From positions 116,404-180,403 of the IMG/VR virus record IMGVR_UViG_3300032782_000001: a stretch of DNA of 64,000 nt. One strand, given 5' to 3'. Position numbers and translations under genes: made by a program. The first letter of the stretch is position 1. Each line of letters starts with the position of its first letter. The notes under the pieces are model-generated. The model had not been told where the DNA came from, searched no databases, and saw nothing but the letters and a program-made list of their open reading frames with translations. The stretch is from a virus. Of this stretch, positions 6,845 to 34,090 are shown piece after piece.

Positions 6845-7722
6845 GTCTACGAGACGTTATAAGACGAATCGTACTCCAAGAGATTCGTGAATTGGTGGTG
6901 GAAGCCGTCCAGGTTTCCACCACTGATCCGAGACCTGACATAATTCCGGCCCGGAAACGGTCTGTCCTTTACAAAGGTGATAGCTGGGCGAAGAAATCAG
7001 TTCGCCTTCGAGTCTGGGAAGCGGTTTTGTTGAGTCTTGGGCGACAAAGATTCCAAGCTGGCCCCCATCTCTTCTTAGCATCTCGAGAAGGCGGAGATGC
7101 ATCGGTGCTCCGTGCACTAGGGGCTCCAGATAGATCCATGATCGCTGTGGATTGGGATGAGGAGGCCATCTCAGAATTTAAAAAGATCTACCCAGGAATC
7201 CGGACTGCATCCGATGACGTAGCTAATGTTTTGGTATCGGAAGATTCCTTTGCTTCTGTTCATTTGGATCTCACGTCTCAAATTACAGAATCTTATCTCG
7301 CAAGAATAATTTTAGCCTCAAAGAAGATCATGCCAGGCGGCGTTATTGCTTGCGCGTTCACAGTTGGACGCGAGAAAAGCTTCCAGAAAAGCATCAACGG
7401 TTGCGCATATGACGCGCGCCTGGGGACTGTGTTGGACAGTATCCGGTCTTCCATTGGGTATAAACCAAGGGTCCTTCTTCAATTCAAGTATAGAAGCGAT
7501 TCTATTCACGGAATTGGCACCAATATGTGCGTTCTTGTCGTTCAAATGGTTCCCTTTATCGAGCCGGCTCCGAAGCTCCAATCCATTTCTGTGTATGATT
7601 TCTATCGAGATATCGAACGTCATGTTAATTCCCGTTCGTTGAATCTCTTCATTAACTGTAGTCAGTCCAAGACTGAAGAGCTTCGAGCACGAGTGATGAT
7701 GTATCCTCCTCCTCGAGCATAA
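6841..7722 (+). CDS. hypothetical protein, possible Rossmann/SAM-MTase-like fold
   Basis: Starts MSLRDVIRRIVLQEI (paralogous N-terminus to 6425 gene); GDASVLRALGA...IAVDWDE resembles MTase motifs I/II weakly. Confidence 0.45.
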   Translation: MSLRDVIRRIVLQEIRELVVEAVQVSTTDPRPDIIPARKRSVLYKGDSWAKKSVRLRVWEAVLLSLGRQRFQAGPHLFLASREGGDASVLRALGAPDRSMIAVDWDEEAISEFKKIYPGIRTASDDVANVLVSEDSFASVHLDLTSQITESYLARIILASKKIMPGGVIACAFTVGREKSFQKSINGCAYDARLGTVLDSIRSSIGYKPRVLLQFKYRSDSIHGIGTNMCVLVVQMVPFIEPAPKLQSISVYDFYRDIERHVNSRSLNLFINCSQSKTEELRARVMMYPPPRA

Positions 7723-7746
7723 ATCGACCTGAAGGTCGAGTATGTA

Positions 7747-9039
7747 TTGGGACTCATGGGAATGTACGAAGAAGCTTCCAAGCGGAAGGCGCTCGCTGTC
7801 AGGGCTCTTCGTTCTCTTCTTGTAAGTCAGAAACCCCTTGAAATGGATGCTATTTTCATGCTTCCAGGGGAAGCTTATGAACGTCGAGATTCTCCCAATC
7901 GGGCCTGGCAGAACGAATTCATGGCTTCTTTGATCGGAAGCGGGATTGTTCAAGAGCACTCGAAAAATAAGGGACGATCCATGTTTGTCTTAAAGAACCC
8001 GGATCGTGTTATCCAGCTCTTGAAAGACGAAAACGCGGGTGGTGATGAGTTAGCAGAACTCGTCACCGAGACGTCTGAAAATGCTCAGTGGTCTAAGACC
8101 GGACAGTCTAACGTCACTCGGACAGCTAAGGGGATCCCTCTTACCAGCAAACCATTTCATAATCTTCCCAGTCTTCTCAAGACGCCAGAATCCACTAAGA
8201 CTAATGTAAACGTCACTGTATTCGGCCTCAACGATGATATGAATGTGGAAACTGAAGACGGAGGGAAATTCGAGACTGAGGAAGAGACTGAGGAGACTGA
8301 AGAATCAGATGACGAATCTGAGACTTCAGGAAATGAAGTTCCGCCAACTTATCAGTGGCCTACTGTCATTCTTGATTATGTTGAAGCCACTAATAAGCAA
8401 TATGTTTCCACTTCAGAGATCGCAGTTCACGCTCTCAAGTTTTCGCCTTCCAACGTCAACGTTTCTGTCCTGAGAGCCATTGGCGGAGTGCTTCGCAATA
8501 ATGGTTGGCGAAATGGGAAATCTAAACCTAATGATGGTTCTAGGCCTATAAGGATTTGGATCCGAAAGGGTTCGCCGGATCCTCAAAACTATGACCTTCC
8601 CGGTTCTTCCCATTCAGAGTATGAGACCGAATCTAACTCACGTGATTCCATTGTTCCGACAGCGATTCCTGGTGTTCAAACCATCACTCAGACCAGTCTT
8701 GATTCTATTCAGAATACTCTTTCTGAACTTCAAGATCTGCAGGCTAGGGTATGTGAGAATCTAATCTACGTCAGGGATAGTGTAAACACTCTTCACGATA
8801 GAATGGAAAGTCTGGAAACTAAACTGGACAGATTGGAAGCCGATAGAAGCACGGATCTAGACTCTGCTCTTGTAAATTCCATGCGTAAAGAAGTAAGGGC
8901 AGCAATGGAAGAGGCAGTAAGTCAGATTGAGACCGGGCGTTCGGCACGCGCCATGGCTGCTGCAGGGAAACTGTCCAGCGAAATCGCAAGTCTCCGCGAT
9001 CTCATTCAAAACGCGATGGACGGAGACGAAGATGAATGA
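7747..9039 (+). CDS. hypothetical protein with poly-acidic tract and C-terminal coiled coil
   Basis: 430-aa ORF; ETEEETEETEESDDESETS tract. Confidence 0.55.
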   Translation: MGLMGMYEEASKRKALAVRALRSLLVSQKPLEMDAIFMLPGEAYERRDSPNRAWQNEFMASLIGSGIVQEHSKNKGRSMFVLKNPDRVIQLLKDENAGGDELAELVTETSENAQWSKTGQSNVTRTAKGIPLTSKPFHNLPSLLKTPESTKTNVNVTVFGLNDDMNVETEDGGKFETEEETEETEESDDESETSGNEVPPTYQWPTVILDYVEATNKQYVSTSEIAVHALKFSPSNVNVSVLRAIGGVLRNNGWRNGKSKPNDGSRPIRIWIRKGSPDPQNYDLPGSSHSEYETESNSRDSIVPTAIPGVQTITQTSLDSIQNTLSELQDLQARVCENLIYVRDSVNTLHDRMESLETKLDRLEADRSTDLDSALVNSMRKEVRAAMEEAVSQIETGRSARAMAAAGKLSSEIASLRDLIQNAMDGDEDE

Positions 9040-9982: not shown

Positions 9983-10544
9983 CCGCAACCCGCCTCCTGC
10001 GCCGCCCCCGGCTCACAGGAAGTCTGTCAACTTCGAAGATTTCATCCCCGATCGGAATCTGAGTGAAGTCCAAAGGGCTGCCCAGTTCCTTTTTTGGGCA
10101 GCGGAGAATATGCCGAAGCGTTTCGTCCCATTCGTATGGATCGCGAAATACGCCTACATCAAACCTAAGTTGCCTCGTTCCGATTCGGCAGAGGTAACTT
10201 TGATCCGTCAAAAGAAGATGGACCAGATCAAGCGTGTTCTGTGGACCGAGTATAAGCGGCGCACGGTATCCGCTCCTCGGAATTCTGAGCCAGGAGTCCG
10301 AGCGACTTACGATCACGACGACATGGCCAATACCGACCTTGTGCGTCGGAGGCGTCATGTGGCCAGCAGCATCAAGCAGATGGCTGACACTCACGCGGCT
10401 ATCGATCCGGAACAGATGAATGACGCGTTGGCTAAGGCCATGGTCTTGGATATGAAACCGATCGTCAAGAAACTCAACACTCCCGATCTTATTCGGAGGT
10501 TGGAACTTCCTCCCCACAAGAAAAAGAAGGAAGATGATAAATGA
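9948..10544 (+). CDS. hypothetical protein
   Basis: 198-aa ORF; ATGA overlap with next gene. Confidence 0.5.
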   Translation: MRMEIVAMKSANRNPPPAPPPAHRKSVNFEDFIPDRNLSEVQRAAQFLFWAAENMPKRFVPFVWIAKYAYIKPKLPRSDSAEVTLIRQKKMDQIKRVLWTEYKRRTVSAPRNSEPGVRATYDHDDMANTDLVRRRRHVASSIKQMADTHAAIDPEQMNDALAKAMVLDMKPIVKKLNTPDLIRRLELPPHKKKKEDDK

Positions 10545-10900
10545 AAAAACTCTTCATCGTGGATGACGATGCGAATGTCCTCCGTGTCCATGTCAGAGCG
10601 CTTTCCAAACACCATCAGGTCACGGCTTCTTTGGATGCCGAAGATCTGATGGCTTCGCTACGGGCCGGTCATTCTTATGACGTCGTGGTTTCCGACGTTG
10701 AAATGCCAGGCATGTCGGGGAAGCAGCTTCTGGATGCTTTGCGCTCGGAATTCCCCAGCTATGAATCGAAATTGATTTTTGTAACTGGGGGAGCCGACTC
10801 CAAAATCTTGGAGTCGCTCGGCACTAAGGCCATCATACTCTGGAAACCGGTCCCAGTGACTGAATTGTTGGAAGCAGTCCAAAACGTGAACGGATCTTGA
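10541..10900 (+). CDS. stand-alone response-regulator receiver (CheY-like REC) domain protein
   Basis: IVDDD acidic pocket, phospho-acceptor-like D in VVVSDVEMPGMSG, LIFVTG and KP motifs in canonical order; 119 aa. Confidence 0.8.
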   Translation: MKKLFIVDDDANVLRVHVRALSKHHQVTASLDAEDLMASLRAGHSYDVVVSDVEMPGMSGKQLLDALRSEFPSYESKLIFVTGGADSKILESLGTKAIILWKPVPVTELLEAVQNVNGS

Positions 10901-11313: not shown

Positions 11314-12136
11314 ACCCTGGTGGGTTTATATGGTTCGATGTTCAGATAACACATTTTATACAGGCATCACGAACAACATTCCAAAGCGAATTGAGAAACA
11401 TGACGACGGGAAAGGTGCCAAATACACACGCGGGCGTGGGCCCGTGACCTTGGTTTGGGCTCGAAAATTCCAAAGCAAGTCTGAAGCTTTAACTGAAGAA
11501 GCGCGCGTCAAGAAACTCTCAAGATTTACAAAAGAATCCATGGCTCCTTGGTGGTGCCATACTCCCAGTCTTCGAAAGAAGAATATTCTCTTTCAAGCAT
11601 TCATTGAAGTGAATGCTAAATATGAGCAAAAAACGAAAGGGAAACTTATTGGATCCCCTTCTATCAGGAAGGAATTATTCAATACATATTCCAGGGCGGT
11701 GCCAACTGAAGAGGCACTCCGTGCTATTGTGAGACTCTCTCCCCTTGTGGAAATGGGTGCCGGCACTGGATACTGGGCTTCTCTCTTGAATCATTTAGGA
11801 GCGGATATCATTGCATATGACAGAATTGATTCAGTTAACCTTTGGCACACCGGACCGACTCGATTCTTTGATGTCAAAAACGGTTCTCCCGAATCTTTGT
11901 TGAATCATTCGGATCGTTCTCTTTTCCTTTGCTGGCCTCCTGCCGACAGCAAGATGGCTGTGGAATGTCTTCGGAATTGGAAAGGACGGGAATTAGCTTA
12001 CGTGGGAGATTTCAATGGATTAACTGGAGATCAGGAATTCTATGACGTTTTGCGTCGAGATTTCGTTCTCACACAGACCATTGAAATCCCGCAGTGGGCG
12101 GGGGCAGAAGATTACTTAACTATCTGGCAAAAATGA
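11177..12136 (+). CDS. GIY-YIG nuclease domain (YhbQ-like) fused to a Rossmann SAM-MTase-like domain; start uncertain (ATG 11177, 11231 or 11330)
   Basis: PWWVYMVRCSDNTFYTGITNNIPKRIEKH..GKGAKYTRGRGP matches GIY-YIG/YhbQ; downstream VEMGAGTGYWASLLNHLGADIIAYD resembles MTase motif I; no stop between. Confidence 0.65.
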   Translation: MLGFPKSWVFKRLTLVTSMPSNAGKLSRQSKQNSLSSSHSATTSHEPWWVYMVRCSDNTFYTGITNNIPKRIEKHDDGKGAKYTRGRGPVTLVWARKFQSKSEALTEEARVKKLSRFTKESMAPWWCHTPSLRKKNILFQAFIEVNAKYEQKTKGKLIGSPSIRKELFNTYSRAVPTEEALRAIVRLSPLVEMGAGTGYWASLLNHLGADIIAYDRIDSVNLWHTGPTRFFDVKNGSPESLLNHSDRSLFLCWPPADSKMAVECLRNWKGRELAYVGDFNGLTGDQEFYDVLRRDFVLTQTIEIPQWAGAEDYLTIWQK

Positions 12137-12161
12137 TTCATCCTCCAGCGTAATGTGACTC

Positions 12162-12494
12162 ATGAAGCCTGATCAGATCATTTCGCTCACCGAGAAATAC
12201 GAAGAAGCTTTCCGGCGCGTCGGTACCAGGCCTAAGGAGATCGACAGGAGCATTACGCCTCCTGGTATGCAGAAGGCATGCGAACACGCAATGTGGATGC
12301 TCCCTAAGATCCGGGAGATCCTCCAGGAGGGAAAGCATGCGAAAGCTGAAAGGTGGTTTTGTTTCGTACAGAGCGTTATGTGGCAGGCAGGATTCTTCAG
12401 CATCAATGATATGCGTGATCACAACCGGACCCCCGAAGAGGAAAAACCTGTTAGCCCGAATCCGGATGCCTGTTCTAATATCCTTGAAGATTAG
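12162..12494 (+). CDS. hypothetical protein
   Basis: 110-aa ORF. Confidence 0.5.
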   Translation: MKPDQIISLTEKYEEAFRRVGTRPKEIDRSITPPGMQKACEHAMWMLPKIREILQEGKHAKAERWFCFVQSVMWQAGFFSINDMRDHNRTPEEEKPVSPNPDACSNILED

Positions 12495-13021
12495 CTGTCC
12501 ATTACCTCCGTCGCAATCTTGGACATGTCAGCGTTAGCCTCAAGCAGGACCCACAAGACGCGGGCATCTGCCGCTACCATAAATTTCTCGTGTCGCCAAT
12601 CCTGGCAGTACCAGTCATAACCTTCGTAAGTTTTCTTTCGTTCTCCTTGATGGAGACGGGTCCTACAAGGACGTACTTGCAGCATTACATGTCCGTTACT
12701 AAGTTCAGGGAGAACTTCGAAATGGAGCATGGCGATAGTCGTGGAAGTCGGGTTTGAAGAATAATCTTTGTGCTCGGATGTTGACCATTTCACCCAAAAA
12801 CGGTTACCACCACTGCAATGAATATGGATATGGTAGGAACAAAATTCAACGGATGCTTTTAGCCTGTCAAATTCTTGGATCAGGTGAGAAATTACTGAGT
12901 CATGTAGCTCACTGAACATCATTCCAGATAATACGTTCAGACTTTGCTGTAAAATGAATCCGGAGGTTTCCATGTCAGTTATTGTAGAGATCAGGGCCGC
13001 CGAAGGCGGAGATGACGCCAA
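12491..13021 (-). CDS. hypothetical protein (ends ...ATEVMDS)
   Basis: 176-aa minus ORF; no competing plus ORF; C-terminal VM-tail. Confidence 0.45.
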   Translation of the reverse strand: MASSPPSAALISTITDMETSGFILQQSLNVLSGMMFSELHDSVISHLIQEFDRLKASVEFCSYHIHIHCSGGNRFWVKWSTSEHKDYSSNPTSTTIAMLHFEVLPELSNGHVMLQVRPCRTRLHQGERKKTYEGYDWYCQDWRHEKFMVAADARVLWVLLEANADMSKIATEVMDS

Positions 13022-13638
13022 ACTCCTCGTTGAGGATCAACTCCGAGTCTATGCGCGCCGCGCGGTTCGGAGGGGTCTTTGACCTTGAAGTAACCGAACG
13101 CCTTCCGGGCCTCGTCGTCTTCCGGTTAACCGGTAAAGGTGCAGACGAAGCTTGGAAGGATGAAGCCGGTGGACACCGCTGGCAAAGGATTCCCCCAACC
13201 GAAAAAAGGGGTCGAGTCCAAACGAGCACTGTGACAGTGGCAGTTTTGCCAGAGCCCACAGAAGCTCAGATCCGGATCGATCCGAGGGACATAGAAGCGT
13301 CCACTACTCGTGGATCTGGTCCTGGTGGTCAAAATCGAAATAAAGTGGAAACGTGTGTCATTTTGAAGCACATCCCTACGGGGCTAACTGTTCGTTGTGA
13401 ATCTGAGAGATCACAACATCAGAATCGAGCTATTGCCCTGGCACTCCTCCGGGCCAGATTATGGGACGCTGCACAGAAGCAGGCCATTGGAGCTCGTGAT
13501 GATAACCGGAAACGTCAAATTGGATCCGGAATGCGTGGAGACAAGAGAAGAACAATTCGATGCCAGGATGGGATAGTCAACGATCACTTGACTGGAAGAC
13601 ACTGGAACTTCAAAGAATATGAGCGCGGTGACTGGTAA
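12972..13638 (+). CDS. PrfH-like class-I peptide chain release factor (lacks domain 1; GGQ motif); expression requires programmed +1 frameshift at CTT-TGA-C (13077-13083)
   Basis: Frame 0 (12972..13082) gives MSVIVEIRAAEGGDDAKLLVEDQLRVYARRAVRRGL-stop. The +1 frame from 13081 continues DLEVTE...GGHRWQRIPPTEKRGRVQTSTVTVAVLPE...SGPGGQNRNKVETCVILKHIPTG...RSQHQNR. The two frames together align with RF1/RF2 domains 2-4. The shift site is GGAGGGG-T-CTT-TGA-C, the canonical prfB cassette. Confidence 0.8.
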
Positions 13639-15699: not shown

Positions 15700-16431
15700 T
15701 CAAATGCCGGTGAGTTCGCACCACCGGTCTATCACCATTTGAGCGTATGCAATGGATGGCATTCCGTAGGCACCCAGAGAAAAGGCATCGTTTACTTCAA
15801 CAACAAGTGTCTTTCCTTCCGACGTGACTCCGAGGTCCAGAGAATAAGCCACAGGCGCGCTTTTAAACGCCAGTACACATTTTTGCGCAATTTCAAAATC
15901 CGGATATTTCGTGAAGTCACCTCGATAATGACGACAGTTCACAATCAGTCCTCGATGAATGAACAGTCTATATTCAGCCACGAAGTCCACCACATCAGAG
16001 GCTAAGATTTCGAATTCATCCGGGAATGAAGCCGTCTTGATAAGATCCCGGATTGCGCCACTCGTTACAAACCCTGTGAACGCTTTACCACTTTTGAGTG
16101 GCTTGATGAACATGTGATGATTATTTTCGAGACGCTCCCTAACATATTTCATGTTGGTTTCCCACATATGTCGACCATAAAATTCGCGAATTTCTTCGAC
16201 AGGTCCGTGATCTAATGTAGGTTGCACAATTCCAAGTCTATCCAGAGCTCGACGCACAGGGCCGATCCATCCATGAACTAACGTCTCTTTGCGGAGTTCT
16301 AGTGAATCGATTTCCTCGGCCGTGAAAGGAATTGTTTCTATACCAAGCATATAACATCCATACCACAGGGAAAAAGCGGTCTCATTAATGAACTCACCGT
16401 TTTTCTTCTGGATGTATGCGAGATCAATCAT
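15700..16431 (-). CDS. ATP-grasp fold protein (putative)
   Basis: FIKPLKSGKAFTG, EYRLFIHRG and DLGV..GKTLVVEVND resemble ATP-grasp lysine, central and C-terminal motifs. Confidence 0.5.
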   Translation of the reverse strand: MIDLAYIQKKNGEFINETAFSLWYGCYMLGIETIPFTAEEIDSLELRKETLVHGWIGPVRRALDRLGIVQPTLDHGPVEEIREFYGRHMWETNMKYVRERLENNHHMFIKPLKSGKAFTGFVTSGAIRDLIKTASFPDEFEILASDVVDFVAEYRLFIHRGLIVNCRHYRGDFTKYPDFEIAQKCVLAFKSAPVAYSLDLGVTSEGKTLVVEVNDAFSLGAYGMPSIAYAQMVIDRWCELTGI

Positions 16432-16458
16432 TAGACATGTTACAGCGTAAGATCTCGC

Positions 16459-17409
16459 ATGCGACTCCGAGGAACAGAATTTGGCAGAGTTTGGTGCTCT
16501 TCAGGATCATTGGGATTCTTCGGTGACGGATATTGGTATCATCGGTTGATGAAACCGTTCGGTCTGGACTACGAAGATACTACCTTCGTGGCTAAGACGA
16601 CGACTCTCTTCCCAAGGAAAGGGAACATGCCTTTGAAGGAAGATAAGGTGACGCCGAAAAATTTACTTCCTTCTTGCATTAAGATCAACTTTCGGAAAGG
16701 GGCAGTTCTGAATTCCGTCGGACTCAGCGGACCAGGTTTTTTCGATCTGATTGGAACAGGGAAATGGCAAAGGAGAACCGAACCTTTCCTCATTTCCTTC
16801 ATGTCAGTATCTTCAACGCCTGAGGGAAGGCTCTCGGAGCTTCGAGGCTTCGTTAGTTTTCTTAAGCCGAAAATCCAAGAATTTCAGGCGCCTTTCGGTG
16901 TGGAAATGAACTTCTCATGCCCAAATGTTGGGCTCCATTCCGGAGAGTTATCCTCTGAAGTCATGACGGCTTTGGAAACAGCTGCTCCGCTTCAAGTCCC
17001 TCTTATTCCGAATTTCGGACCCGACGTCTCCACAAAGATCATTTGGGACACCATGCTTCATCCTTCTTGTGATGCAGTGTCTATTTCCAACACTTTGAAG
17101 TGGGGAATGATGCCTGATCGCGTGGATTGGGAATCCATTTGGGGGTCTAAATCCTCTCCACTAGTCCAATTTGGAGGTGGAGGAATGTCCGGGTCTCCTA
17201 TTTTCCCGATAGTGTTGGAACTCGTCCAAGAAGTTTGCAAAGACTCTATTCCGAAACCCCTGATTGCGGGCGGCGGAATCATGAACGAGGCTAACGCTGT
17301 AGCACTCATTAAGTCTGGAGCTTCTGCCATCAAGCTGGGAACAGTTGCGATGCTCAGGCCGTGGCGTGTACGTGGGATTGTAAAGAAAGTTCGGGAGATG
17401 ATGCTTTGA
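16459..17409 (+). CDS. pyrD: dihydroorotate dehydrogenase (class 1-like)
   Basis: NFSCPNVG active-site motif and C-terminal LIAGGGIMNEANAVALIKSGASAIKLGT FMN-binding motif. Confidence 0.8.
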   Translation: MRLRGTEFGRVWCSSGSLGFFGDGYWYHRLMKPFGLDYEDTTFVAKTTTLFPRKGNMPLKEDKVTPKNLLPSCIKINFRKGAVLNSVGLSGPGFFDLIGTGKWQRRTEPFLISFMSVSSTPEGRLSELRGFVSFLKPKIQEFQAPFGVEMNFSCPNVGLHSGELSSEVMTALETAAPLQVPLIPNFGPDVSTKIIWDTMLHPSCDAVSISNTLKWGMMPDRVDWESIWGSKSSPLVQFGGGGMSGSPIFPIVLELVQEVCKDSIPKPLIAGGGIMNEANAVALIKSGASAIKLGTVAMLRPWRVRGIVKKVREMML

Positions 17410-18410
17410 AAATTTCCATTCGAAGGCCAGATGATTTCCATGTTCATTTAAGAGATGGTGACATTCCATCTCTCGTAGGTCCATATACGTCTGATTCCTT
17501 CTCAAGGGCTTTGGTGATGCCCAACACTTCTTCTCCCATTCTCTCAGCGATGGATGCTGAAACCTACAGGAAGAAGCTTCGAGAAGATGTCCCCCTTCTT
17601 GAGCCCCTCATGACTATTCAGCTCACAAGTTCTACTTCACCAGAAATGATCTTGGAAGCCCAAAAAGTGGGGGTTATGGCTGCCAAGTTTTACCCCTTGG
17701 GGGTCACAACCAATTCAGGGAACGGATCTCTTCAGATCACTGATTTGAGATCTCAGCTCTCCATGATGGAAGAAATTGGAATGATCTTATGCCTCCATGG
17801 AGAAACTCCAAACGTTTTTTGTATGGACAGGGAACGCGATTTCTTGCAACGTTCCCTCATGCCGCTGTCGAAGGGGTTTCCTAAACTCAAGATTGTTCTG
17901 GAACATCTATCCACGGCTGATGCTGTTGGCTACGTAGAAAATCTCCCCGACAATGTTGCAGCCACCATCACAGCTCATCATCTAGTCTTGACTCTGGATG
18001 ATGTTTTGGGAGATAAACTGAAGACGCATCATTTCTGTAAGCCCATAGCCAAGCACCCGAGAGACAGAGAAGAACTCCGAAGGGCGGCCACTTCCGGGAA
18101 TCCAAAATTCTTCCTCGGAACTGATTCAGCACCTCATCCAATCAATGGTAAAGAATGTGCTGAAGGATGTGCCGGAGTTTTCACTGCACCAGTTGCCATG
18201 GAAATCTTGGCAGAAGAATTTGAGAAAGCAGATGCTCTCCAAAAATTGGAAGCGTTCACCAGCGAATTTGGAGCACGATTCTACGGACTTCCATTGAATA
18301 AAGAAAAACTCGTTTTAGAGAAGAAATTGCGACGAGTTCCTGGTATGGTACAGAGAAATTTTGTACCATTTATGAGCGGTAAGGAACTATTATGGTCTCG
18401 AAGCTCTTGA
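17406..18410 (+). CDS. pyrC: dihydroorotase (class II, PyrC-like)
   Basis: LKISIRRPDDFHVHLRDGD...MPNTSSPI and LGTDSAPHP...CAGVFTAP...FYGLPLN collinear with E. coli PyrC; TTG at 17406 with GGGAG SD preferred over GTG 17361. Confidence 0.9.
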   Translation: MKISIRRPDDFHVHLRDGDIPSLVGPYTSDSFSRALVMPNTSSPILSAMDAETYRKKLREDVPLLEPLMTIQLTSSTSPEMILEAQKVGVMAAKFYPLGVTTNSGNGSLQITDLRSQLSMMEEIGMILCLHGETPNVFCMDRERDFLQRSLMPLSKGFPKLKIVLEHLSTADAVGYVENLPDNVAATITAHHLVLTLDDVLGDKLKTHHFCKPIAKHPRDREELRRAATSGNPKFFLGTDSAPHPINGKECAEGCAGVFTAPVAMEILAEEFEKADALQKLEAFTSEFGARFYGLPLNKEKLVLEKKLRRVPGMVQRNFVPFMSGKELLWSRSS

Positions 18411-18459
18411 AACTGACCGGCTACTGGCAGAGTATATGAGGCGATCTCGCCTCAAATAC

Positions 18460-18533
18460 CCGCCAGTAGCTCAGTTGGTAAGAGCACGAGCCTTATAAGC
18501 ACGGAGTCGGTGGTTCGATCCCACCCTGGCGGA
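18460..18533 (+). tRNA. tRNA with anticodon TAT (Ile, AUA-reading)
   Basis: Cloverleaf: acceptor CCGCCAG/CTGGCGG, D-arm GCTC-AGTTGGTAA-GAGC, anticodon loop CTTATAA, T-arm GGTGG-TTCGATC-CCACC; no CCA encoded. Confidence 0.6.
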
Positions 18534-18534
18534 C

Positions 18535-19548
18535 TTAATCGTCGTCACTAAAAGACGAGCTAGACCCTCCGTCGTCATTGTCATCATTACCGAAGGAAGA
18601 TGCGGATCCGCCGGAATCGTCATCATCTGATACGCTGGATGATGACCCGAAAGATGAGCTAGCACCGCCAGTGTCATCATCGTCGTCATACCTGCGGCGA
18701 GACCGGACCTCCCGTTCCACGTAGACGTCCCTCTCGTATACCCTGTCTCGACGCGCGCTCAAGCTGCCGAGTGCATAACCAGTAAGAAGATCCCCATTTC
18801 CTCCAGAAGAGGAAGTCTGATTCACTACTACTGTAGTAGGAGCCGCAGGAGCTGCAACATAGACCGGGCGCATAGCCGGAGCTGGAGGGGGCATAGCCGG
18901 AGGCGGCGGATCCGGAATCTGATTAGAACGACGCGGCTTGGAAGAGACTTCTCTGGCCTTATCACGGAATTTATCAGCCCATGCCTCTTCTTCCATATTG
19001 CGAACACGTTTCTCTGCAATTTCTTCGTCCAGCTCTTCGATCTTCCTCTCGTGCTCTTCTTCCCGCCGTTTGTTCTTCCACCAGAAGAAACCACCGATCG
19101 CCACTACGAGGACCACGGTGCCAAAGATCCACCATCCAGTGTTACTATTCGTGGCAGGGCCAGGAATTTGAGCAGGTGTAGATTGAGTGGTCGAAGTCTG
19201 GGTCCTGAGACCAATGGTCTTCTCAGCAATTTTCACAACGCCGTCTGCCCAACGGGCCTCTTTGAAAGCAGAATTGCCGGCAGACGAAATAGATGACCAC
19301 TGTGATGGGGTAACTCCGACGCCCTTACCGAAATGGACCACAACGTTTTTGTGGGTCGGATCCAATCCGATGGCAACCACACCAGGTTCATCTACAGCCT
19401 TGTGTACTCGCGACTCGAGTGCCGATTTGCTCAAGGAGCTTGATGTGATCACTTGAACGTCGAATGGCCACTGGGCCGCCGCGGTTTGTAGTGCGGTTAC
19501 GTCCGCAGGGCTGAAAGTCCCAGCATCATCATGAATGTTGATCGTCAT
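18535..19548 (-). CDS. TPM-domain protein with TM helix and Gly/Ser/Asp-rich C-terminal tail
   Basis: N-terminal TPM-like domain, TM segment WWIFGTVVLVVAIGGFFWW, then low-complexity tail; stop abuts tRNA. Confidence 0.65.
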   Translation of the reverse strand: MTINIHDDAGTFSPADVTALQTAAAQWPFDVQVITSSSLSKSALESRVHKAVDEPGVVAIGLDPTHKNVVVHFGKGVGVTPSQWSSISSAGNSAFKEARWADGVVKIAEKTIGLRTQTSTTQSTPAQIPGPATNSNTGWWIFGTVVLVVAIGGFFWWKNKRREEEHERKIEELDEEIAEKRVRNMEEEAWADKFRDKAREVSSKPRRSNQIPDPPPPAMPPPAPAMRPVYVAAPAAPTTVVVNQTSSSGGNGDLLTGYALGSLSARRDRVYERDVYVEREVRSRRRYDDDDDTGGASSSFGSSSSVSDDDDSGGSASSFGNDDNDDGGSSSSFSDDD

Positions 19549-19635
19549 GTCTGTGTATCCTCTCTCTACAGTTACGCTTGAAGCCGTTTCCGTGATGAGA
19601 TCATACCGGTCAAAAACTGGAATCTACGAACAATC

Positions 19636-19664
19636 TTGACACAAAGCTCGCGAACGGTTATCAT
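19636..19664 (+). promoter_or_regulatory. near-consensus sigma70 promoter TTGACA-17-TATCAT
   Basis: -35 TTGACA 19636-19641, 17-nt spacer, -10 TATCAT 19659-19664; upstream of gene 19769 with SD CAGGAGG. Confidence 0.4.
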
Positions 19665-19768
19665 GACTCAGCCATGAAGCACCACCTCTGAATTCACACC
19701 TGTCGTGGCCCTCCTGGGCACCGTCGCGTTCTCAACGTCCGACGAGTCCAGAATCCAGGAGGTAGACC

Positions 19769-20185
19769 ATGTATCAGATGAGTGAAGAAGAGCGCGCGGA
19801 GCGCTCCAAGGTGAAGGCTCTCCACGCGGCTATTCGCGGATGCGGCCCGGTTGGTGACCGGTATCGCAATCTCGCGTGGGGTTTCGTGCGCGGTTTCCCA
19901 TACCGACGCATTGAGCGGAACCATCATGTTCAAATGTTGGACAACGCCAACTATGAACAGATGGCGAAGCTCGACAACCATTATCGTCAACTTGACGGTC
20001 AGTGGTTTTATGAACACAATATGCCCTCGGAGACTTGGCTCTTCGACACCTTGAAGAAGTTCCTCCCGGAACTTAAGAAGGAACAGATTGTCACGTGGAT
20101 GCGTGACATGTCCGGTGCAATTCCTCCGCCGCCACCTCGGCCAAAGCGGACGCGTGAAGAAGCGATGGCTCACGCGGGGGTGTAG
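19769..20185 (+). CDS. hypothetical protein
   Basis: 138-aa ORF with good SD; Pro-rich C-terminus. Confidence 0.6.
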   Translation: MYQMSEEERAERSKVKALHAAIRGCGPVGDRYRNLAWGFVRGFPYRRIERNHHVQMLDNANYEQMAKLDNHYRQLDGQWFYEHNMPSETWLFDTLKKFLPELKKEQIVTWMRDMSGAIPPPPPRPKRTREEAMAHAGV

Positions 20186-20523
20186 TGGACAAGCTATACG
20201 TCATCGTCCGGGGGGATCTTCCCCCCGGAGACCAGGCCGTCCAATCCATGCATGCGGCGTTGAAATACGCCAAAGAGCATTCGGATTGGACGGCCTGGTA
20301 CGAGGCTTCCAATTACATTGCGCTCCTAAGCGTGCCTAATGAGCGAGAGCTCATGAAATTGCTGATGAAAGCGCGAGATCGAGATCTCAAATTCGCAGCT
20401 TTCTGCGAGCCGGATCTAGATGATTCTATGACTGCTATTGCACTTGAACCCGGGTTCCGATCCAGGCGCTTGTGCAATGGGCTCCCGCTTGCGCTTTCGG
20501 AAAACCAAAATATTCCGGCGTAA
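20185..20523 (+). CDS. peptidyl-tRNA hydrolase, PTH2 family
   Basis: KLYVIVRGDLPPGDQAVQSMHAAL matches PTH2 core (VxVVRxDLxMGxGKxAAQCxHAA). Confidence 0.7.
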   Translation: MDKLYVIVRGDLPPGDQAVQSMHAALKYAKEHSDWTAWYEASNYIALLSVPNERELMKLLMKARDRDLKFAAFCEPDLDDSMTAIALEPGFRSRRLCNGLPLALSENQNIPA

Positions 20524-20531
20524 GCTAGTTC

Positions 20532-20786
20532 ATGAACGACACCATTAGGACCGTGCGGGCGCTTCTTCAGAACACGGCATCACCGGCTGGTGATCACACT
20601 AAGGTTATCTTGGAAGTTAAGCAGCATTCTGGAGAAATCATCTGGCCGGACTTCATTACTCACGACGACAAAGTCTACAGGAACACTCTCACTACCCTCT
20701 GGGGTGCTCGCGTTTATTCGCAAGTCCCGGCATGTCCAGCGAGAATTTCTGAAGATAAGTGGGACGAACTGGCTAAAGGGTCCTGA
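20532..20786 (+). CDS. hypothetical protein
   Basis: 84-aa ORF; stop followed directly by next start. Confidence 0.5.
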   Translation: MNDTIRTVRALLQNTASPAGDHTKVILEVKQHSGEIIWPDFITHDDKVYRNTLTTLWGARVYSQVPACPARISEDKWDELAKGS

Positions 20787-20787
20787 G

Positions 20788-21192
20788 ATGATGGGCTACA
20801 GCGCTACCGACGTCTTCACGAAGAAGGAACAAGTGCTCTTGAGCATGGCCAAAGTTCTGGTTGAATGCTTACCAGAAATTCCAGGTCTCCGATGTCACGA
20901 AGTAGCAAGAGCCGTAGGTACCGTCTTGGGTTTGGAAACCCAAGATGGTCATTATGGACCGGTAGAACACTCCTGGCTCGTCGTTCCTCCTCGAAGCATG
21001 GGACGGGGGCCGGGAGTGCTTGACGTATACTCTGTTGGAAGTCTTCCCACAGTCCGTTTATGTGACGGGTTCCTTCTGCTCCCTTATGCCAAAGAATTCC
21101 AACCGGGGATCCCTAGGCAGGATATTGATGAAGGTTTGGTGATGGATCTTATAGACTGCATGCACGCGAGGCTTCTGGGAGCTCCGCTGTAA
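20788..21192 (+). CDS. hypothetical protein
   Basis: Begins MMGYSATD immediately after upstream TGA; upstream part of track ORF 20590 is low-complexity. Confidence 0.5.
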   Translation: MMGYSATDVFTKKEQVLLSMAKVLVECLPEIPGLRCHEVARAVGTVLGLETQDGHYGPVEHSWLVVPPRSMGRGPGVLDVYSVGSLPTVRLCDGFLLLPYAKEFQPGIPRQDIDEGLVMDLIDCMHARLLGAPL

Positions 21193-21202
21193 CGTTCAGC
21201 CC

Positions 21203-21781
21203 ATGGAAGATAACGAGATTCTCGGGAATCCGCGCGATGGCATCATTGAGCTATTGAAGGCTCGAAGTGTCAAATTTGGGAATTTCACTCTAGCGTCAGG
21301 GAAGAAGAGCGATTTCTTCGTGGATTGCAAACAATCCATTCTCACTGGTATCGGACATGTCTGGGCTGGGCAACTGATGTTGGAAGCTGTCGCCCTTCAC
21401 TTCAAGGAAGCTAGGGCTGTAGCAGGGGTGGAACTCGGTGGGTGCCCCCTGGCGAGTTCAGTGGCGCTCCTCAGTGCTGTCGCTCCTGAAATTCATAGTC
21501 TGGATGCTCTATACGTTCGTAAGACTAAGAAAGATCACGGAACTGGGAATCTTGTAGAAGGTAAAGGTGACATGGAATCCGGAACCCCGGTCGTCTTGCT
21601 TGAGGACGTCGCGACGACTGGAGGATCTTCCATGAGAGCTATCAAAGCACTTCAAGATGAAGGATTCCGGGTCCTCGGGGTTATTACCCTCCTGGATAGG
21701 AATGAAGGCGCTTCTGACGCGTTCCGTGAAGCCGACATCCCGTTTGTCGCCATCTTGGACCGATGCGACCTCGAGGACTGA
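21203..21781 (+). CDS. pyrE: orotate phosphoribosyltransferase
   Basis: VKFGNFTLASGKKSDFFVDC and PRPP motif VVLLEDVATTGGS. Confidence 0.85.
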   Translation: MEDNEILGNPRDGIIELLKARSVKFGNFTLASGKKSDFFVDCKQSILTGIGHVWAGQLMLEAVALHFKEARAVAGVELGGCPLASSVALLSAVAPEIHSLDALYVRKTKKDHGTGNLVEGKGDMESGTPVVLLEDVATTGGSSMRAIKALQDEGFRVLGVITLLDRNEGASDAFREADIPFVAILDRCDLED

Positions 21782-22713
21782 TCAGCGTCTTCCTGGTTCT
21801 GTCTTGTTCCAAGCAGCCAGTTCAGACGAACACCGAAGGCATCCCTGACGCCGGACAACCGGTCGTCGTCGAAGCCGTCCCGCTTGAGCCGGAAAACCAC
21901 CTTCCTGTCGTTACTCTCGGTGAATATTCCACCGAGTATTCATGCGAAGGGAAGGATGAAGCTCGAGCCAAGAATATCGAGCTTGCAGCTTCTCGTCTCC
22001 AAGCGTGGAACGAGAATTGGAACCCTGGCGAGGAATTCAGTTTTAACGATGCAGTCGGACCACGGACTTCAGAAGCTGGGTTCTTAAACGCTCCCGTCAT
22101 CTTCATGGGTGAGACCACAGCAGGGATAGGTGGAGGAGTCTGCCAAGTTAGTTCCACGCTCCACGCGGCCGCTCTCATGAGTGGATTGGAAGTTATTACC
22201 CGTCGCCCCCATACGCGCTTCTCCAAGTATATTCCTCACGGCTTAGATGCGACGGTGGCTTATCCGCCTGAATGCAATGGGAATCACCGGGAGAATATCG
22301 CGAATGGAAAAAATCCGAAGTGTGATTCGGTGGATTTGATTCTCCGAAACCCATTCGGATTTGAGATCAGTATTAAGACATTTACTGAAGAATCAGGTTT
22401 AGGGAAGAAGCGACTGAGAATCTGGATCGAAGGAGCCAAGAATCCGATCGAGAAAGCTTCCTACCGCATCATGCAGTCCGGTGGCGTGGATTTTAAAAGG
22501 ACCTTCCATAAAATTAGTCGAATCCGGACTGCTACTTACAAGAAGCTAGTTCAATCCGGTCAACAAGGGGCTCATGTTACTTCATTCATATCATATTTGA
22601 TGAAGGACGGGACGAAGAAAGAAATCAGCTACAGGAGTGAGTACCCTCCGGTGAACGAAACCTGGGAGGTTGGACTTCTGTACGATATGTCAGGTCCGCC
22701 GCCTTGGGAATAG
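21763..22713 (+). CDS. VanW-domain protein, probable lipoprotein
   Basis: GGGVCQVSSTLHAAALMSGLEVITRRPH matches VanW core; N-terminal LVLSCS lipobox-like. Confidence 0.6.
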   Translation: MRPRGLISVFLVLSCSKQPVQTNTEGIPDAGQPVVVEAVPLEPENHLPVVTLGEYSTEYSCEGKDEARAKNIELAASRLQAWNENWNPGEEFSFNDAVGPRTSEAGFLNAPVIFMGETTAGIGGGVCQVSSTLHAAALMSGLEVITRRPHTRFSKYIPHGLDATVAYPPECNGNHRENIANGKNPKCDSVDLILRNPFGFEISIKTFTEESGLGKKRLRIWIEGAKNPIEKASYRIMQSGGVDFKRTFHKISRIRTATYKKLVQSGQQGAHVTSFISYLMKDGTKKEISYRSEYPPVNETWEVGLLYDMSGPPPWE

Positions 22714-22718
22714 ATTAT

Positions 22719-22795
22719 GGGTCCGTAGCTCAACTGGCTAGAGCTGTCGTTTTCAACTCGAATGGTTGCGGGTTCAAATCCCGTCGGGCCCTCCA
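22719..22795 (+). tRNA. tRNA-like gene; anticodon positions 34-36 read TCA (UGA-reading) but anticodon stem weak (3 WC pairs)
   Basis: Acceptor GGGTCCG/CGGGCCC, D-arm GCTC-AACTGGCTA-GAGC, T-arm GCGGG-TTCAAAT-CCCGT, encoded CCA; loop TTTCAAC. Confidence 0.4.
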
Positions 22796-22819: not shown

Positions 22820-22892
22820 GCTTCCGTAGCCAAGTTGGTCAGGCAGCGGCTTTCAATTCCGCCACACGTGGGTTCGAGTCCCACCGGAAGCG
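22820..22892 (+). tRNA. tRNA with anticodon TCA (opal-suppressor type)
   Basis: Acceptor GCTTCCG/CGGAAGC, anticodon stem GCGGC/TCCGC (4 bp + C-T), loop TTTCAAT, T-arm GTGGG-TTCGAGT-CCCAC. Confidence 0.55.
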
Positions 22893-22913
22893 CTCGCTAG
22901 GTACTGTGGTACC

Positions 22914-25029: not shown

Positions 25030-25406
25030 GGGCCTGATCGGCTTCGACTGGGGAAGAAAGAACGATCTGCGTGCAGGCGGCGCTCGATCCGCCATAACCA
25101 ATCGAGCCGACACAGCTGCCAACGACAACGGCGCCCTCCGCATCGCGGCCTAAAAAACCGCGCGGATGTCTTCCCGGCGAAACTGCTTCCAGTAACCGGA
25201 TGAAGGCACGAACCCAAGAGGAAGCTGGCCGTGGGAGTAACCCTCCTTTTATCCCGACGCCTCAGCCGGGAAGGCGAGATCAAGTCTAGGCTGACAGTGC
25301 GGAAAGACGCGCAAACTCAGTCGCAGGGGATACGGCGACTACGCACGTGAACGAGGGTTGTTTGGACAACTTCAGGACGCGGGTTCGATTCCCGCCAGGT
25401 CCACAA
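25030..25406 (+). ncRNA. ssrA: tmRNA (ssrA); predicted tag ANDNGALRIAA
   Basis: 5' GGGCCTGATCGGCTTCGACTGGGG is like E. coli GGGGCUGAUUCUGGAUUCGACGGG. 3' GGACGCGGGTTCGATTCCCGCCAGGTCCACA is nearly identical to the E. coli tmRNA 3' end. Acceptor pairs 25030-25036 with 25396-25402. Internal ORF GCC AAC GAC AAC GGC GCC CTC CGC ATC GCG GCC TAA. Confidence 0.8.
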
Positions 25407-31876: not shown

Positions 31877-34090
31877 GTGAGCGACGAAATTCAGAAGATT
31901 CCGAAAATTCCGAATCCTTCCGGTAAGTCCGCCGTTGACGGAGAGCCCGAAGACCTAATTCAAATCGGCCAGTGGTACTGGGTCAAAAATCAAAAGGATA
32001 AAGACCCTTGGTTTGGGTGCGTCGTCCACGTTGGGACGAACTACGCAGAAGTCCAAGCTCCTCGGTATGGCTCCAGCAGGATTCATTTCGATAATTTCTT
32101 TTCCATTTGCTCTTTGGAGCCTAATCCGGATGCGGTAATCGATAAGGAGATTTCCGAGCATCAAACGGAAGTCAATCGGCTCCTTGGACGCGTGAAAGAA
32201 GTCACCGCCCAGCTCTCTATTGTCCCGAATCCTCTTCTCCAGTCTGGCAACGAAACACGAGCACTCGCGCTCCGTGGTCCAGGCCAGGATATGGGCGAAT
32301 ATGGGAAGGCGCTAGAGAAAGCCAAGAAGGAGATTCTTCCTGACTTATTCCGTCGGATTCAAAGCACCAACGAATCTCTGGCAGCATGGATGACCGCTAA
32401 GATCGTCCCGTTGAAAGCTCAAGCTAAAGGTCTTGATTCCATCATTGGAGCCATCAACGAACGCATCTTCTCGGTGGAGCTTTACGCCGGGCTGACCGAG
32501 AACGTTGAGAAAATTCGCGATGGAGAACCTGCACCACTTTCCACAAAAGTTCATCTCTTTCAGCGTCGCTGTTACATGGACGAAGAGTGTCTTGCCCATT
32601 ATGAAACGGGCGGCATATCATTCCGCAACATTCACGAATTCGATAACTGGATCGCACGAGAAGACAATCTGAATAGATTGTTTCCATTCCCTCGATCCAT
32701 CGTTGCCTTTCGTGTCCGTCGTTCGGAAAAACATCGAGAGATCATCAATTTCTCAGATTTTATCTCTCTTGAAGGAGAACTCAACGCAGATAAATGGACT
32801 TTCCTCTACATCCGGAATGGAGCTCAACTCTTTCGGATGGATACGAAAATCGAATTCGGTCATAAATTATTCCCGGATCTCGGTCATAATTCCCTCGTGG
32901 GAAAACTGTGGGCGGAAATGTTCGCCGGCAACGTCAAAAGACTCATCACAGACAACGAACACACTGGCATTATCGAGGATTTAGAGCGAGAACGAAAAGA
33001 ATGGAGGAAAAAGGATAAAGCTTTCCAGCAAGCCAAGAAGGCTGGAAAGAAAACTTCTGACGACGCAGAAGTTAACTGGCCAGGATTCGAACCAAGGCTC
33101 TTCCATGATTACGAGCCTTACGATCGTTCGAGCGTATACAAGGATGATATTGCGGAGAAAATTCAAGACGAAATCCGTGAACACAATCGAATCGGACTTG
33201 TCATTCAAGGACTCCTCGATAGATCTCCCGTTCTTCATCCGCACCCGCCTTGGCAGATTTGGACCCCAGATGGGTTCAATATGGCCTTGGAGCTTGTCTA
33301 TGATGAGAGCAGGACTCTGACCACGGGTGAGGCTCCCGACTTCGAAGCGTATCGCGCGCGATTGAACCAGTCTCTCAAGACGGGTTCAGTCACTGTTGGT
33401 CAGCAAGAAGCTTGGCTTAGATATGAGGCCAAGAAGGAATCCGATCGCCGAGATCGTGATTATCGTTATGCCAGGGAGCATTACCGACCTTCCCATTTCC
33501 AACCCCACGGGAATCCGGGGCCTGGAATTCTCGCGAAGGTTATGAATTTCAACAAGAACACCAAAGAGTGTTCGTACTCTTGGAATCGGGAACGTCAAAC
33601 TCACCCTAATTACGGAAGTCCAATTCGCACGACGTTTTCCTGTGTCTCCGGAATCGTGTTGAACGTGGATGCATACACCCCTGGAGATTTCAAAATTTTC
33701 TTCAATGATCCGAGAACCCGTGCCGATTACCTCCAGTGGGCTCCTTTGCTCTTGGAAGCAGAAGAATATCACGCCGGAAACCGGAAAGTAGTAGAACCGG
33801 CGCCTCCTGGTCCAAAAATCGAAAGTAGTTGGGAAGGTCAAAAAAGGTACGAAAATCGCAAAATCCGAAAGCAGCTTATGGGTAAAGCTGTTAGATTGGT
33901 TCGTGATGTCAAAATGATGGACGGGACCGTCTACAAGTCCGGATCACTTTGGCGAGTAATTGGAGGTTCTGGACGAGATTTTGAAATTGAAGGAATCGAG
34001 ACTGACGGGACCCCTTCCAAGAAGTCCCGAGGCATCCGGAAGATGCGTGCGCACGACTTCGAAGTAGATCCGGACATTCCGGAAAAGTAG
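31877..34090 (+). CDS. large hypothetical protein (737 aa)
   Basis: Long uninterrupted ORF, GTG start; no recognisable motif. Confidence 0.65.
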   Translation: MSDEIQKIPKIPNPSGKSAVDGEPEDLIQIGQWYWVKNQKDKDPWFGCVVHVGTNYAEVQAPRYGSSRIHFDNFFSICSLEPNPDAVIDKEISEHQTEVNRLLGRVKEVTAQLSIVPNPLLQSGNETRALALRGPGQDMGEYGKALEKAKKEILPDLFRRIQSTNESLAAWMTAKIVPLKAQAKGLDSIIGAINERIFSVELYAGLTENVEKIRDGEPAPLSTKVHLFQRRCYMDEECLAHYETGGISFRNIHEFDNWIAREDNLNRLFPFPRSIVAFRVRRSEKHREIINFSDFISLEGELNADKWTFLYIRNGAQLFRMDTKIEFGHKLFPDLGHNSLVGKLWAEMFAGNVKRLITDNEHTGIIEDLERERKEWRKKDKAFQQAKKAGKKTSDDAEVNWPGFEPRLFHDYEPYDRSSVYKDDIAEKIQDEIREHNRIGLVIQGLLDRSPVLHPHPPWQIWTPDGFNMALELVYDESRTLTTGEAPDFEAYRARLNQSLKTGSVTVGQQEAWLRYEAKKESDRRDRDYRYAREHYRPSHFQPHGNPGPGILAKVMNFNKNTKECSYSWNRERQTHPNYGSPIRTTFSCVSGIVLNVDAYTPGDFKIFFNDPRTRADYLQWAPLLLEAEEYHAGNRKVVEPAPPGPKIESSWEGQKRYENRKIRKQLMGKAVRLVRDVKMMDGTVYKSGSLWRVIGGSGRDFEIEGIETDGTPSKKSRGIRKMRAHDFEVDPDIPEK

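Follow-up and report, generated by a model that had tools for sequence, protein, structure and literature searches.

How much of the pathway to uridine monophosphate (UMP) does a huge phage carry, and which of its steps? The question is raised by a 64,000-nucleotide stretch of the IMG/VR virus record IMGVR_UViG_3300032782_000001 (positions 116,404 to 180,403, hereafter the window), for which an initial annotation from the sequence alone proposed a de novo pyrimidine module of ATP-grasp, PyrD, PyrC and PyrE genes at positions 15700-21781. All four genes are found there. We compared the window proteins with curated equivalog models at their NCBIfam/TIGRFAM cut-offs, with Pfam at its gathering scores, and with known proteins and structures by PDB, Foldseek and tblastn comparisons. 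The reading that we consider probable is that of a huge phage with three consecutive UMP-synthesis enzymes that would boost flux through the middle of the pathway; we infer activity, electron acceptor and role from the sequence. The features that carry this reading are the following.

16459-17409, plus strand: pyrD-like gene for a 316-amino-acid flavoenzyme predicted to have the dihydroorotate dehydrogenase (DHODH) fold (Pfam DHO_dh)
17393-17397, plus strand: GGGAG, Shine-Dalgarno sequence for pyrC inside the 3' end of pyrD, read from the sequence
17406-18410, plus strand: pyrC, predicted homodimeric (E. coli-type) dihydroorotase of 334 amino acids (TIGR00856)
21203-21781, plus strand: pyrE, predicted orotate phosphoribosyltransferase (OPRT) of 192 amino acids (TIGR00336)

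PyrC scores 373.9 bits with TIGR00856 (pyrC_dimer, cut-off 292.95) over profile positions 1-339 of 341, and it aligns end to end with the Vibrio and E. coli dihydroorotases (5vgm, E = 8e-84, and 1j79), in agreement with the HVHLRDG motif and the collinearity with E. coli PyrC that had been pointed out. In the alignment with 5vgm, the segments HVHLRD, AAKFYP, LHGE, LEH and GTDSAPH are all identical, keeping the HxH motif, a lysine, two histidines and an aspartate. We take these to be the counterparts of the binuclear-zinc ligands H16, H18, K102, H139, H177 and D250 of E. coli PyrC, namely the HxH motif, a carboxylated lysine, two further histidines and an aspartate. Missing metal-binding residues had been named as an argument against the module; all of the aligned residues are kept. 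PyrC is predicted to be a bona fide, canonical and intact dihydroorotase.

The last 4 nt of the pyrD-like gene are the first 4 of pyrC (TTGA), the pyrD stop codon TGA lying at 17407-17409 and the pyrC start codon TTG at 17406, and the GGGAG sequence sits 8 nt upstream of this TTG. A 4-nt overlap of the two genes is also annotated in the huge-phage genome SR-VP_PHAGE_64_16 and in contig L011. This bears out the proposal that pyrD and pyrC form one translationally coupled unit. An alternative pyrC start, GTG 17361, which gives a 49-nt overlap with pyrD, was rejected in favor of TTG 17406 because of the Shine-Dalgarno spacing, the start of the homologue alignment, and the public 334-amino-acid gene call P0121 on a 436,316-bp contig, to which the window PyrC is 100% identical.

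The pyrE gene starts 2.8 kb past the end of pyrC, close to the 3 kb given in the initial annotation, and the motif reported for it, VVLLEDVATTGGS, is present as the acidic motif for binding phosphoribosyl pyrophosphate (PRPP). Its product scores 135.3 bits with TIGR00336 (cut-off 106.8) and matches 19 OPRTs in the PDB at E<=1.6e-6, with M. tuberculosis OPRT 5hkf at 4e-25. In the alignment with E. coli PyrE, the loop R106-K107-x-x-K110-x-H112-G113 is matched, as are the E134-D135 PRPP motif and D165-R166; R106, K107, K110, H112, G113, D135, D165 and R166 are invariant across the window PyrE, E. coli PyrE and the phage homologues. PyrE thus reads as a bona fide, canonical and intact OPRT.

Among named cellular proteins, PyrE is closest to OPRTs of Polyangiaceae and Planctomycetota (51-57% identity), while PyrD and PyrC are closest to proteins of the candidate phyla radiation (CPR)/Patescibacteria (47-57% identity). 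These differing affinities suggest a mosaic assembly of the module.

Gene decay, the other argument that had been raised against the module, was considered for pyrD, pyrC and pyrE and rejected: all three proteins are full length and conserved, with intact catalytic residues and 40-67% identity kept across relatives. This level of identity, together with the intact active sites, argues for purifying selection.

The block is predicted to be steps 3-5 of the six in UMP synthesis, at least within the ~78 kb inspected, that is, the window and ~14 kb of flanks, out of a genome of roughly 340-436 kb (public assemblies of the same genome measure 337 kb, ENA ERZ27256589 k141_1250017, and 436 kb, the contig mentioned above). 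Using E. coli PyrB, PyrI and PyrF and the orotidine monophosphate (OMP) decarboxylase of contig L010 as queries, tblastn gave no match in the window. The Pfam families OTCace, OMPdecase, CPSase and PyrK likewise had no match in the window open reading frames (ORFs) of at least 70 amino acids, essentially all of which the Pfam scans took in, and the annotation of the flanks contains no pyrB, pyrF, carAB or pyrK. The full de novo module of the initial annotation is thereby reduced to its three middle steps, and the search for pyrB and pyrF that it had recommended found neither gene in the window or the flanks.

The enzyme assigned to step 4 required a closer comparison. The initial annotation had named it PyrD on the basis of the NFSCPNV motif and an FMN (flavin mononucleotide) motif; NFSCPNV is indeed present at residues 151-157, with its catalytic Cys base, but the protein is not a canonical PyrD, since it misses the equivalog cut-offs and carries an asparagine, Asn185, in place of a lysine. 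It matches Pfam DHO_dh with 58 bits (gathering score 27) over residues 79-315, the same residues that align with its top PDB sequence match, the L. lactis class 1B subunit PyrDB (1ep1). Residues K46, N85, N151, C154, N156 and N211 align to 1ep1 and are invariant in 58 homologues of the same clade, in whose alignment the GGGG-x-SG and GG motifs also show little or no variation. By comparison with the L. lactis enzymes, K46, the asparagines and C154 presumably correspond to the residues with which class 1 DHODHs bind FMN and orotate and to their Cys base; we assume that their counterparts in L. lactis DHODA are Asn67, Asn127, Asn132, Asn193 and Lys43. Class 2 DHODHs, membrane enzymes linked to quinones, have a Ser base and an N-terminal domain for membrane association; no class 2 features were seen in the protein, its base being Cys154 and not Ser and its scores with the class 2 NCBIfam models being at most 30 bits. 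The N-terminus is conserved from residue 1, and the public call of 260 amino acids, which starts at Met57, is too short.

The AlphaFold2 (AF2) model of the PyrD-like protein, for which the alignment of the 58 homologues was used, has a mean pLDDT (predicted local distance difference test) of 91.8. When this model was compared with the PDB by Foldseek, the top 50 matches were all DHODHs of classes 1B, 1A and 2, with E-values down to 3e-15, TM-scores (template modeling scores) of 0.65-0.71 and sequence identities of 16-22%.

A collection of 5.8 billion proteins contains 643 relatives of the PyrD-like protein; those listed are 45-62% identical to it, and many of them are named as proteins of Parcubacteria, Minisyncoccia or Doudnabacteria. 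When each GTDB species is represented by a single genome, 43-47% identity is reached at only six loci (two Saccharibacteria, one Uhrbacteria, one Parcubacteria, one Wolfebacteria and one contig binned as Gammaproteobacteria), and the next-best matches, at 30% or less, are ordinary class 1B PyrD proteins of Firmicutes, Bacteroidales and others. Because of this sharp gap in identity (>=43% vs <=30%), we assign the protein to a discrete clade, predicted to have the DHODH fold, of CPR/Patescibacteria and huge phages. A member of the clade lies directly 5' of pyrC in contigs L006, L007, L010, L011, L012, L016, L017 and L020. In the CPR-like contig L010, a phosphoribosyltransferase (PRTase) gene, the DHO_dh-like gene and pyrC are followed by the gene for a 437-amino-acid protein (7018-8331), whose C-terminal half matches E. 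coli PyrF (37%, 2e-27) and whose N-terminal part matches PRTase. Because CPR-like contigs carry the clade in such pyrD-pyrC-pyrE/F operons, a DHODH function of the PyrD-like protein is likely.

In many CPR bacteria, this clade appears to provide the PyrD, a point of consequence for metabolic reconstructions in which CPR are scored as being without the DHODH step. The clade is missed by the standard annotation models, its NCBIfam scores being far below cut-off and the published phage copy being left as 'uncharacterized'.

In eight related phage-like contigs, pyrD is accompanied by pyrC, a PRTase gene or both, and an OPRT-type PRTase gene stands alongside pyrD in 7 of the 9 phage-like contigs when the window is counted. 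The closest relative, the 6.8-kb contig L012, has the full layout of the window, including the divergent R2K-clade ATP-grasp gene, the PTH2, PRTase and VanW genes, at 47-70% identity. Contigs L002, L098 and L099 have pyrD and a PRTase gene without pyrC, L006 combines pyrD with pyrC and lacks a PRTase gene within 10 kb, and in the IMG/VR contig L007 the order is pyrE / large protein / pyrD-pyrC, as in SR-VP_PHAGE_64_16. The constant element in the related phage contigs is pyrD, usually with pyrE, and pyrC is variable. Contig L002 also presents a variant of the last gene, a NUDIX-PRTase fusion (11868-12941) in place of a plain pyrE.

A profile scan of IMG/VR returned only four loci, two of them distant at 25% identity, and a DNA-level search of the region against GenBank phages gave tRNA-sized matches only. 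Among 50,697 GenBank phage records, PyrC-like proteins occur in 4, mostly as short host-like fragments, DHO_dh-like proteins in 17, all at 31% identity or less and mostly as fragments, and PyrE in 34, including annotated cyanophage genes. The view that dihydroorotase and DHODH are unusual viral cargo is borne out by these counts, the 4 and 17 records being mostly dubious.

In the role that we propose, the host would supply carbamoyl-aspartate, through its carbamoyl phosphate synthetase (CPSase) and aspartate carbamoyltransferase, as well as OMP decarboxylase. The phage dihydroorotase would turn carbamoyl-aspartate into dihydroorotate (step 3), the soluble, Cys-based DHODH of the CPR/huge-phage clade would make orotate (step 4), and the OPRT would make OMP (step 5). 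The phage would thereby boost the dihydroorotate-to-OMP flux during infection, its enzymes supplying the redox and the PRPP-consuming steps free of host regulation and of a respiration-linked host DHODH. Every related phage contig examined has pyrD and most have a PRTase gene, with dihydroorotase optional, which points to the dihydroorotate-to-OMP segment as the bottleneck during infection. A ribosome-profiling report describes a Lactococcus host that lowers UMP biosynthesis early in phage infection (PMC10986495). Such down-regulation in the host is one plausible selective reason for the phage block. The block shows what part of pyrimidine synthesis a huge phage encodes for itself.

Several observations weigh against this reading. 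The absence of pyrB and pyrF covers the ~78-kb part of the genome defined above; neither a capsid nor a terminase gene was seen in the window, and the phage identity comes from context and relatedness. The PyrD-like protein scores below every NCBIfam PyrD cut-off (class 1B, archaeal, class 1A oxidase and class 2), its best score being 86.8 bits with PRK07259 against a cut-off of 269. No Pfam family of a PyrK-like partner, the FAD- and 2Fe-2S-carrying subunit of class 1B heterotetramers, or of another electron-transfer subunit was found in the window ORFs tested or in the annotated neighbors of the relatives. Members of the clade stand alone in the CPR loci L004, L015, L018 and L019, and pyrD occurs without pyrC in the three phage contigs named above. 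Lastly, the window protein has Asn185 (IPNFGPD) where L. lactis PyrDB has the lysine of VKLSPN, a residue that presumably contacts FMN and is conserved across DHODHs.

Among the 58 homologues, position 185 is Lys in 44 and Asn in 14, with Lys in the CPR members of the clade and in SR-VP_PHAGE_64_16. In a neighbor-joining tree, the Asn185-type sequences, window included, are near-monophyletic, and every Asn185-type genomic context inspected is phage-like. For these reasons we take Asn185 to be a fixed feature of its branch and not a mark of decay here.

These points bear most directly on an explanation in which the DHO_dh-like protein is not a DHODH but a related FMN enzyme, for example of the dihydrouracil/dihydropyrimidine type or another enoate reductase, and the block serves a purpose other than de novo UMP synthesis, for instance salvage or modification of a pyrimidine ring. 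Consistent with this explanation are the low PyrD score, accompanied by weak PreA and DPD matches, the replacement of an FMN-contacting Lys by Asn that is fixed in the phage subclade, and the TM-scores to solved DHODHs of only about 0.67-0.71, as well as the occurrence of the pyrD-like gene without pyrC in L002, L098, L099 and several CPR loci. However, the orotate-binding asparagines and the Cys base are invariant, and no other TIM-barrel (triosephosphate isomerase barrel) flavoenzyme is found among the top 50 structural matches. The tight coupling to pyrC through a 4-nt overlap recurs in the window, SR-VP_PHAGE_64_16 and L011, the pyrD-like gene belongs to the pyrD-pyrC-pyrE/F operon of L010, and an OPRT-type PRTase gene co-occurs in seven of the nine phage-like contigs. 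We therefore regard this explanation as unlikely and retain a DHODH as the better assignment.

If the protein is a DHODH, it may represent an uncharacterized class of the enzyme, soluble, with a Cys base and no PyrK partner, that is restricted to CPR/Patescibacteria and huge phages and in which the phage members have exchanged Lys for Asn; we put this forward only tentatively and rate it as somewhat doubtful. Were it true, the Asn of the phage branch could mean an altered flavin environment or another electron acceptor, and a respiration-independent phage DHODH would uncouple pyrimidine synthesis from the redox state of the host. The literature consulted contains nothing specific on a CPR or phage DHODH class, or on phage pyrC/pyrD auxiliary genes.

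The other question on which the proposed role depends is whether the replicon is viral. The window encodes a holin (Phage_holin_5_2, 50.2 bits) at 46503-46874 on the minus strand, two HNH nucleases and one GIY-YIG nuclease, a Dam-type methylase, two sigma factors and RecA, and a large majority of its ORFs have no family match. No ribosomal protein or core metabolic gene is present in the ~78 kb, and none of the large hypothetical ORFs received a structural-protein assignment from PHROGs. Past the window end, positions 1-7116 of L097 (from the 337-kb ENA assembly) encode a DNA polymerase A of 960 amino acids, DnaB, a DnaG-type zinc-ribbon protein and a full DnaJ. On the other side, L096, which precedes the window start, encodes a fragment similar to histidyl-tRNA synthetase and an Rv2179c-like exonuclease. 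The holin, the nucleases, the replication genes of the flank and the lineage-specific proteins in common with SR-VP_PHAGE_64_16 make a huge phage the best reading of the replicon, and we hold it with high confidence.

A non-viral origin, from a small CPR-like cellular genome or a megaplasmid with housekeeping pyr genes, could be argued from the closest cellular homologues of PyrD and PyrC being in CPR bacteria, from the lack of capsid, portal and terminase genes in the window, and from its transfer-messenger RNA (tmRNA), tRNAs, release-factor-like gene, RecA and sigma factors; moreover, an exact 48-mer of the window pyrC was not found in IMG/VR. Nevertheless, most window ORFs lack a Pfam match, whereas housekeeping genes are densely packed in the CPR loci L004 and L011, the window has a phage holin family and three homing-type nucleases, and it has lineage-specific proteins and gene order in common with SR-VP_PHAGE_64_16 and the IMG/VR contig L007. 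We consider such an origin improbable, and a huge phage remains the preferred reading. The holin gene lies directly downstream of a gene for a ferritin-like protein on the same strand (46871-47476, minus).

The three pyr genes are accompanied by the following features.

15700-16431, minus strand: ATP-grasp protein of the R2K clade, 243 amino acids (Pfam R2K_2, R2K_3)
18460-18534, plus strand: tRNA-Ile (anticodon TAT), directly 3' of pyrC (ARAGORN; Rfam tRNA 63.6 bits)
Between pyrC and pyrE, minus strand: TPM-like membrane protein
19636-19664, plus strand: candidate sigma-70-like promoter, TTGACA-17-TATCAT, 11 of 12 matches (consensus scan)
19769-20185, plus strand: conserved hypothetical protein, 138 amino acids (tblastn relatives, no Pfam match)
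20185-20523, plus strand: PTH2-type peptidyl-tRNA hydrolase (Pfam PTH2, E=1.5e-8)
20788-21192, plus strand: conserved hypothetical protein, 134 amino acids, directly 5' of pyrE (public gene call in L001)
21763-22713, plus strand: VanW-domain protein overlapping the 3' end of pyrE (Pfam VanW, E=3.3e-34)

The ATP-grasp gene, which had been counted as part of the module, is present as a divergent gene upstream of pyrD, but its product belongs to another family. It scores 132.2 bits with Pfam R2K_2 (gathering score 26.2, E=1.7e-38) and matches R2K_3 at E=4.6e-24; these are the only families matched at E<=0.01 in the 243 amino acids, with no match to a CPSase-type ATP-binding domain. It corresponds to phrog_7313, whose function is given there as unknown. 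R2K.2 enzymes have been predicted to be peptide ligases, phage copies of which may modify specific host proteins (Burroughs et al. 2015, PMC4431377), and a similar peptide-ligase prediction exists for jumbo phages (Iyer et al. 2021, PMC7824862). The ATP-grasp gene and pyrD are arranged head to head with 27 bp (16432-16458) between their start codons, and a divergent R2K gene beside pyrD is found only in the window and L012 (57% identity). Because of this restricted occurrence, we treat the ATP-grasp protein as a neighbor, a predicted peptide ligase of the R2K clade with a presumably separate, protein-modifying function outside the pyrimidine pathway. That it belongs functionally to the module, by modifying or regulating a pyrimidine enzyme or by making an upstream intermediate, is very improbable, since the head-to-head arrangement conserved in L012 is offset by the predicted activity of R2K.2 enzymes on proteins, the lack of a CPSase-type domain match, and the lack of an R2K gene beside pyrD in L002, L098, L099, L006, L007 and SR-VP_PHAGE_64_16.

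Two conventional promoters with their leaders would not fit into the 27-bp gap. In public gene calls, the ATP-grasp protein (216 amino acids) and the PyrD-like protein (260 amino acids) are both shortened, although the N-termini of both are conserved in homologues.

Downstream of pyrC, the candidate promoter precedes the gene string that runs from the 138-amino-acid hypothetical protein and PTH2 to pyrE and VanW; it is a single site from a scan that was not enriched over shuffled sequences. The 138-amino-acid protein accompanies pyrD, PTH2 and pyrE across related phages and has 42-51% identity in L002, L003 and L012 by tblastn, with the gene order kept. PTH2 is kept in L002, L012 and L006 and is a neighbor within a conserved gene string, not a pyrimidine enzyme. 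The 134-amino-acid protein is 49% identical to its counterparts in L002 and L003, and a VanW gene also lies 3' of the PRTase gene in L012 and L098.

Elsewhere in the window, the dCTP deaminase (62199-62894, minus strand) and the HD nucleotidase (YfbR-like, 52402-53058) that had been associated with the module are present, but no MazG was found by Pfam in the ORFs tested. Two tRNAs with anticodon TCA, which would read UGA, lie at 22719-22795 and 22820-22893 on the plus strand; ARAGORN calls them 'SeC', and the general Rfam tRNA model gives them 56.7 and 55.1 bits. A release-factor-like protein of 208 amino acids (13012-13638, plus strand) has PCRF and RF-1 domains, an IPPTEKRGR sequence (PxT/RF1-type motif) and GGQ, and a tmRNA is found at 25030-25406 on the plus strand (111.9 bits). 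Together with PTH2, the TCA tRNAs, the release-factor-like protein and the tmRNA look like a toolkit for termination and ribosome rescue, possibly with UGA recoding. Yet TGA is the commonest stop codon in the window (42 of 95 ORFs, pyrD included). Further cargo at 914-1300, 2412-2714, 10541-10900, 36348-37550, 59331-59996 (minus strand), 49840-50829 (minus), 51580-52230 and 55797-56585 (minus) comprises YAcAr SLOG and RyR domains, a stand-alone response-regulator receiver, two sigma-70-type factors, a papain-like peptidase, a pyroglutamyl peptidase and a carbon-nitrogen hydrolase.

Among known systems, the closest likeness is to SR-VP_PHAGE_64_16, in which pyrE (149471-150064, minus strand), a hypothetical protein of 626 amino acids (plus strand), a pyrD-like gene (146563-147534, minus) and pyrC (145529-146566, minus) lie together. 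There too, the pyrD-like gene and pyrC overlap by 4 nt and pyrE is within about 3 kb; its PyrC, 53% identical to that of the window, is annotated as 'dihydroorotase, homodimeric type' and its PyrD-like protein as 'uncharacterized protein'. It differs in keeping Lys where the window has Asn185, in having no R2K ATP-grasp beside pyrD, and in its GC content (64%, per its name, vs ~48% for the window), and, unlike SR-VP_PHAGE_64_16, the window has its pyrE in the PTH2/VanW gene string. The 626-amino-acid protein has a counterpart in the window ORF 31877-34090 (plus strand, 737 amino acids), with 49% identity over 618 residues; this ORF has no Pfam or PHROG match and lies 10 kb away from the pyr genes, while its homologues are situated between pyrE and pyrD-pyrC, both in SR-VP_PHAGE_64_16 and in L007 (8041-9942, minus).

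The CPR operons (L010, L011, L016 and L017) have the same PyrD clade (47-50%) and PyrC type (50-55%) as the window, with the same pyrD-then-pyrC order and short or overlapping junctions. They differ in their cellular housekeeping context, their Lys-type PyrD and, in L010, the fusion of OMP decarboxylase to a PRTase domain. Cyanophage pyrE genes (Prochlorococcus phages P-SSM2, P-SSM5 and P-SSM7) encode annotated phage OPRTs that are 34-39% identical to the window PyrE; the records of these three phages were not returned in the GenBank phage searches with the window pyrC and pyrD. Compared to class 1 DHODHs (L. lactis PyrDB 1ep1, and the class 1A enzymes of L. lactis and trypanosomatids), the PyrD-like protein has in common the predicted TIM-barrel FMN fold, the NxSCPN motif with its Cys base, the orotate-binding asparagines, the N-terminal lysine, and the GGxSG and GG motifs; it adds an N-terminal insertion (GFFGDGYWYH) and another at residues 213-238, with no PyrK nearby.

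According to Al-Shayeb et al. 2020 (Nature 578:425; PMC7162821), many huge phages have genes for de novo purine and pyrimidine synthesis that are similar to those of small-celled symbionts. Huge phages with CPR-like nucleotide-biosynthesis genes have been in print since 2020. The pyrE / pyrD-pyrC block is already in a published huge-phage genome, and the combination is not novel. What is modestly new is the putative DHODH clade that phages have in common with CPR bacteria, and within it the phage branch with Asn in place of Lys.

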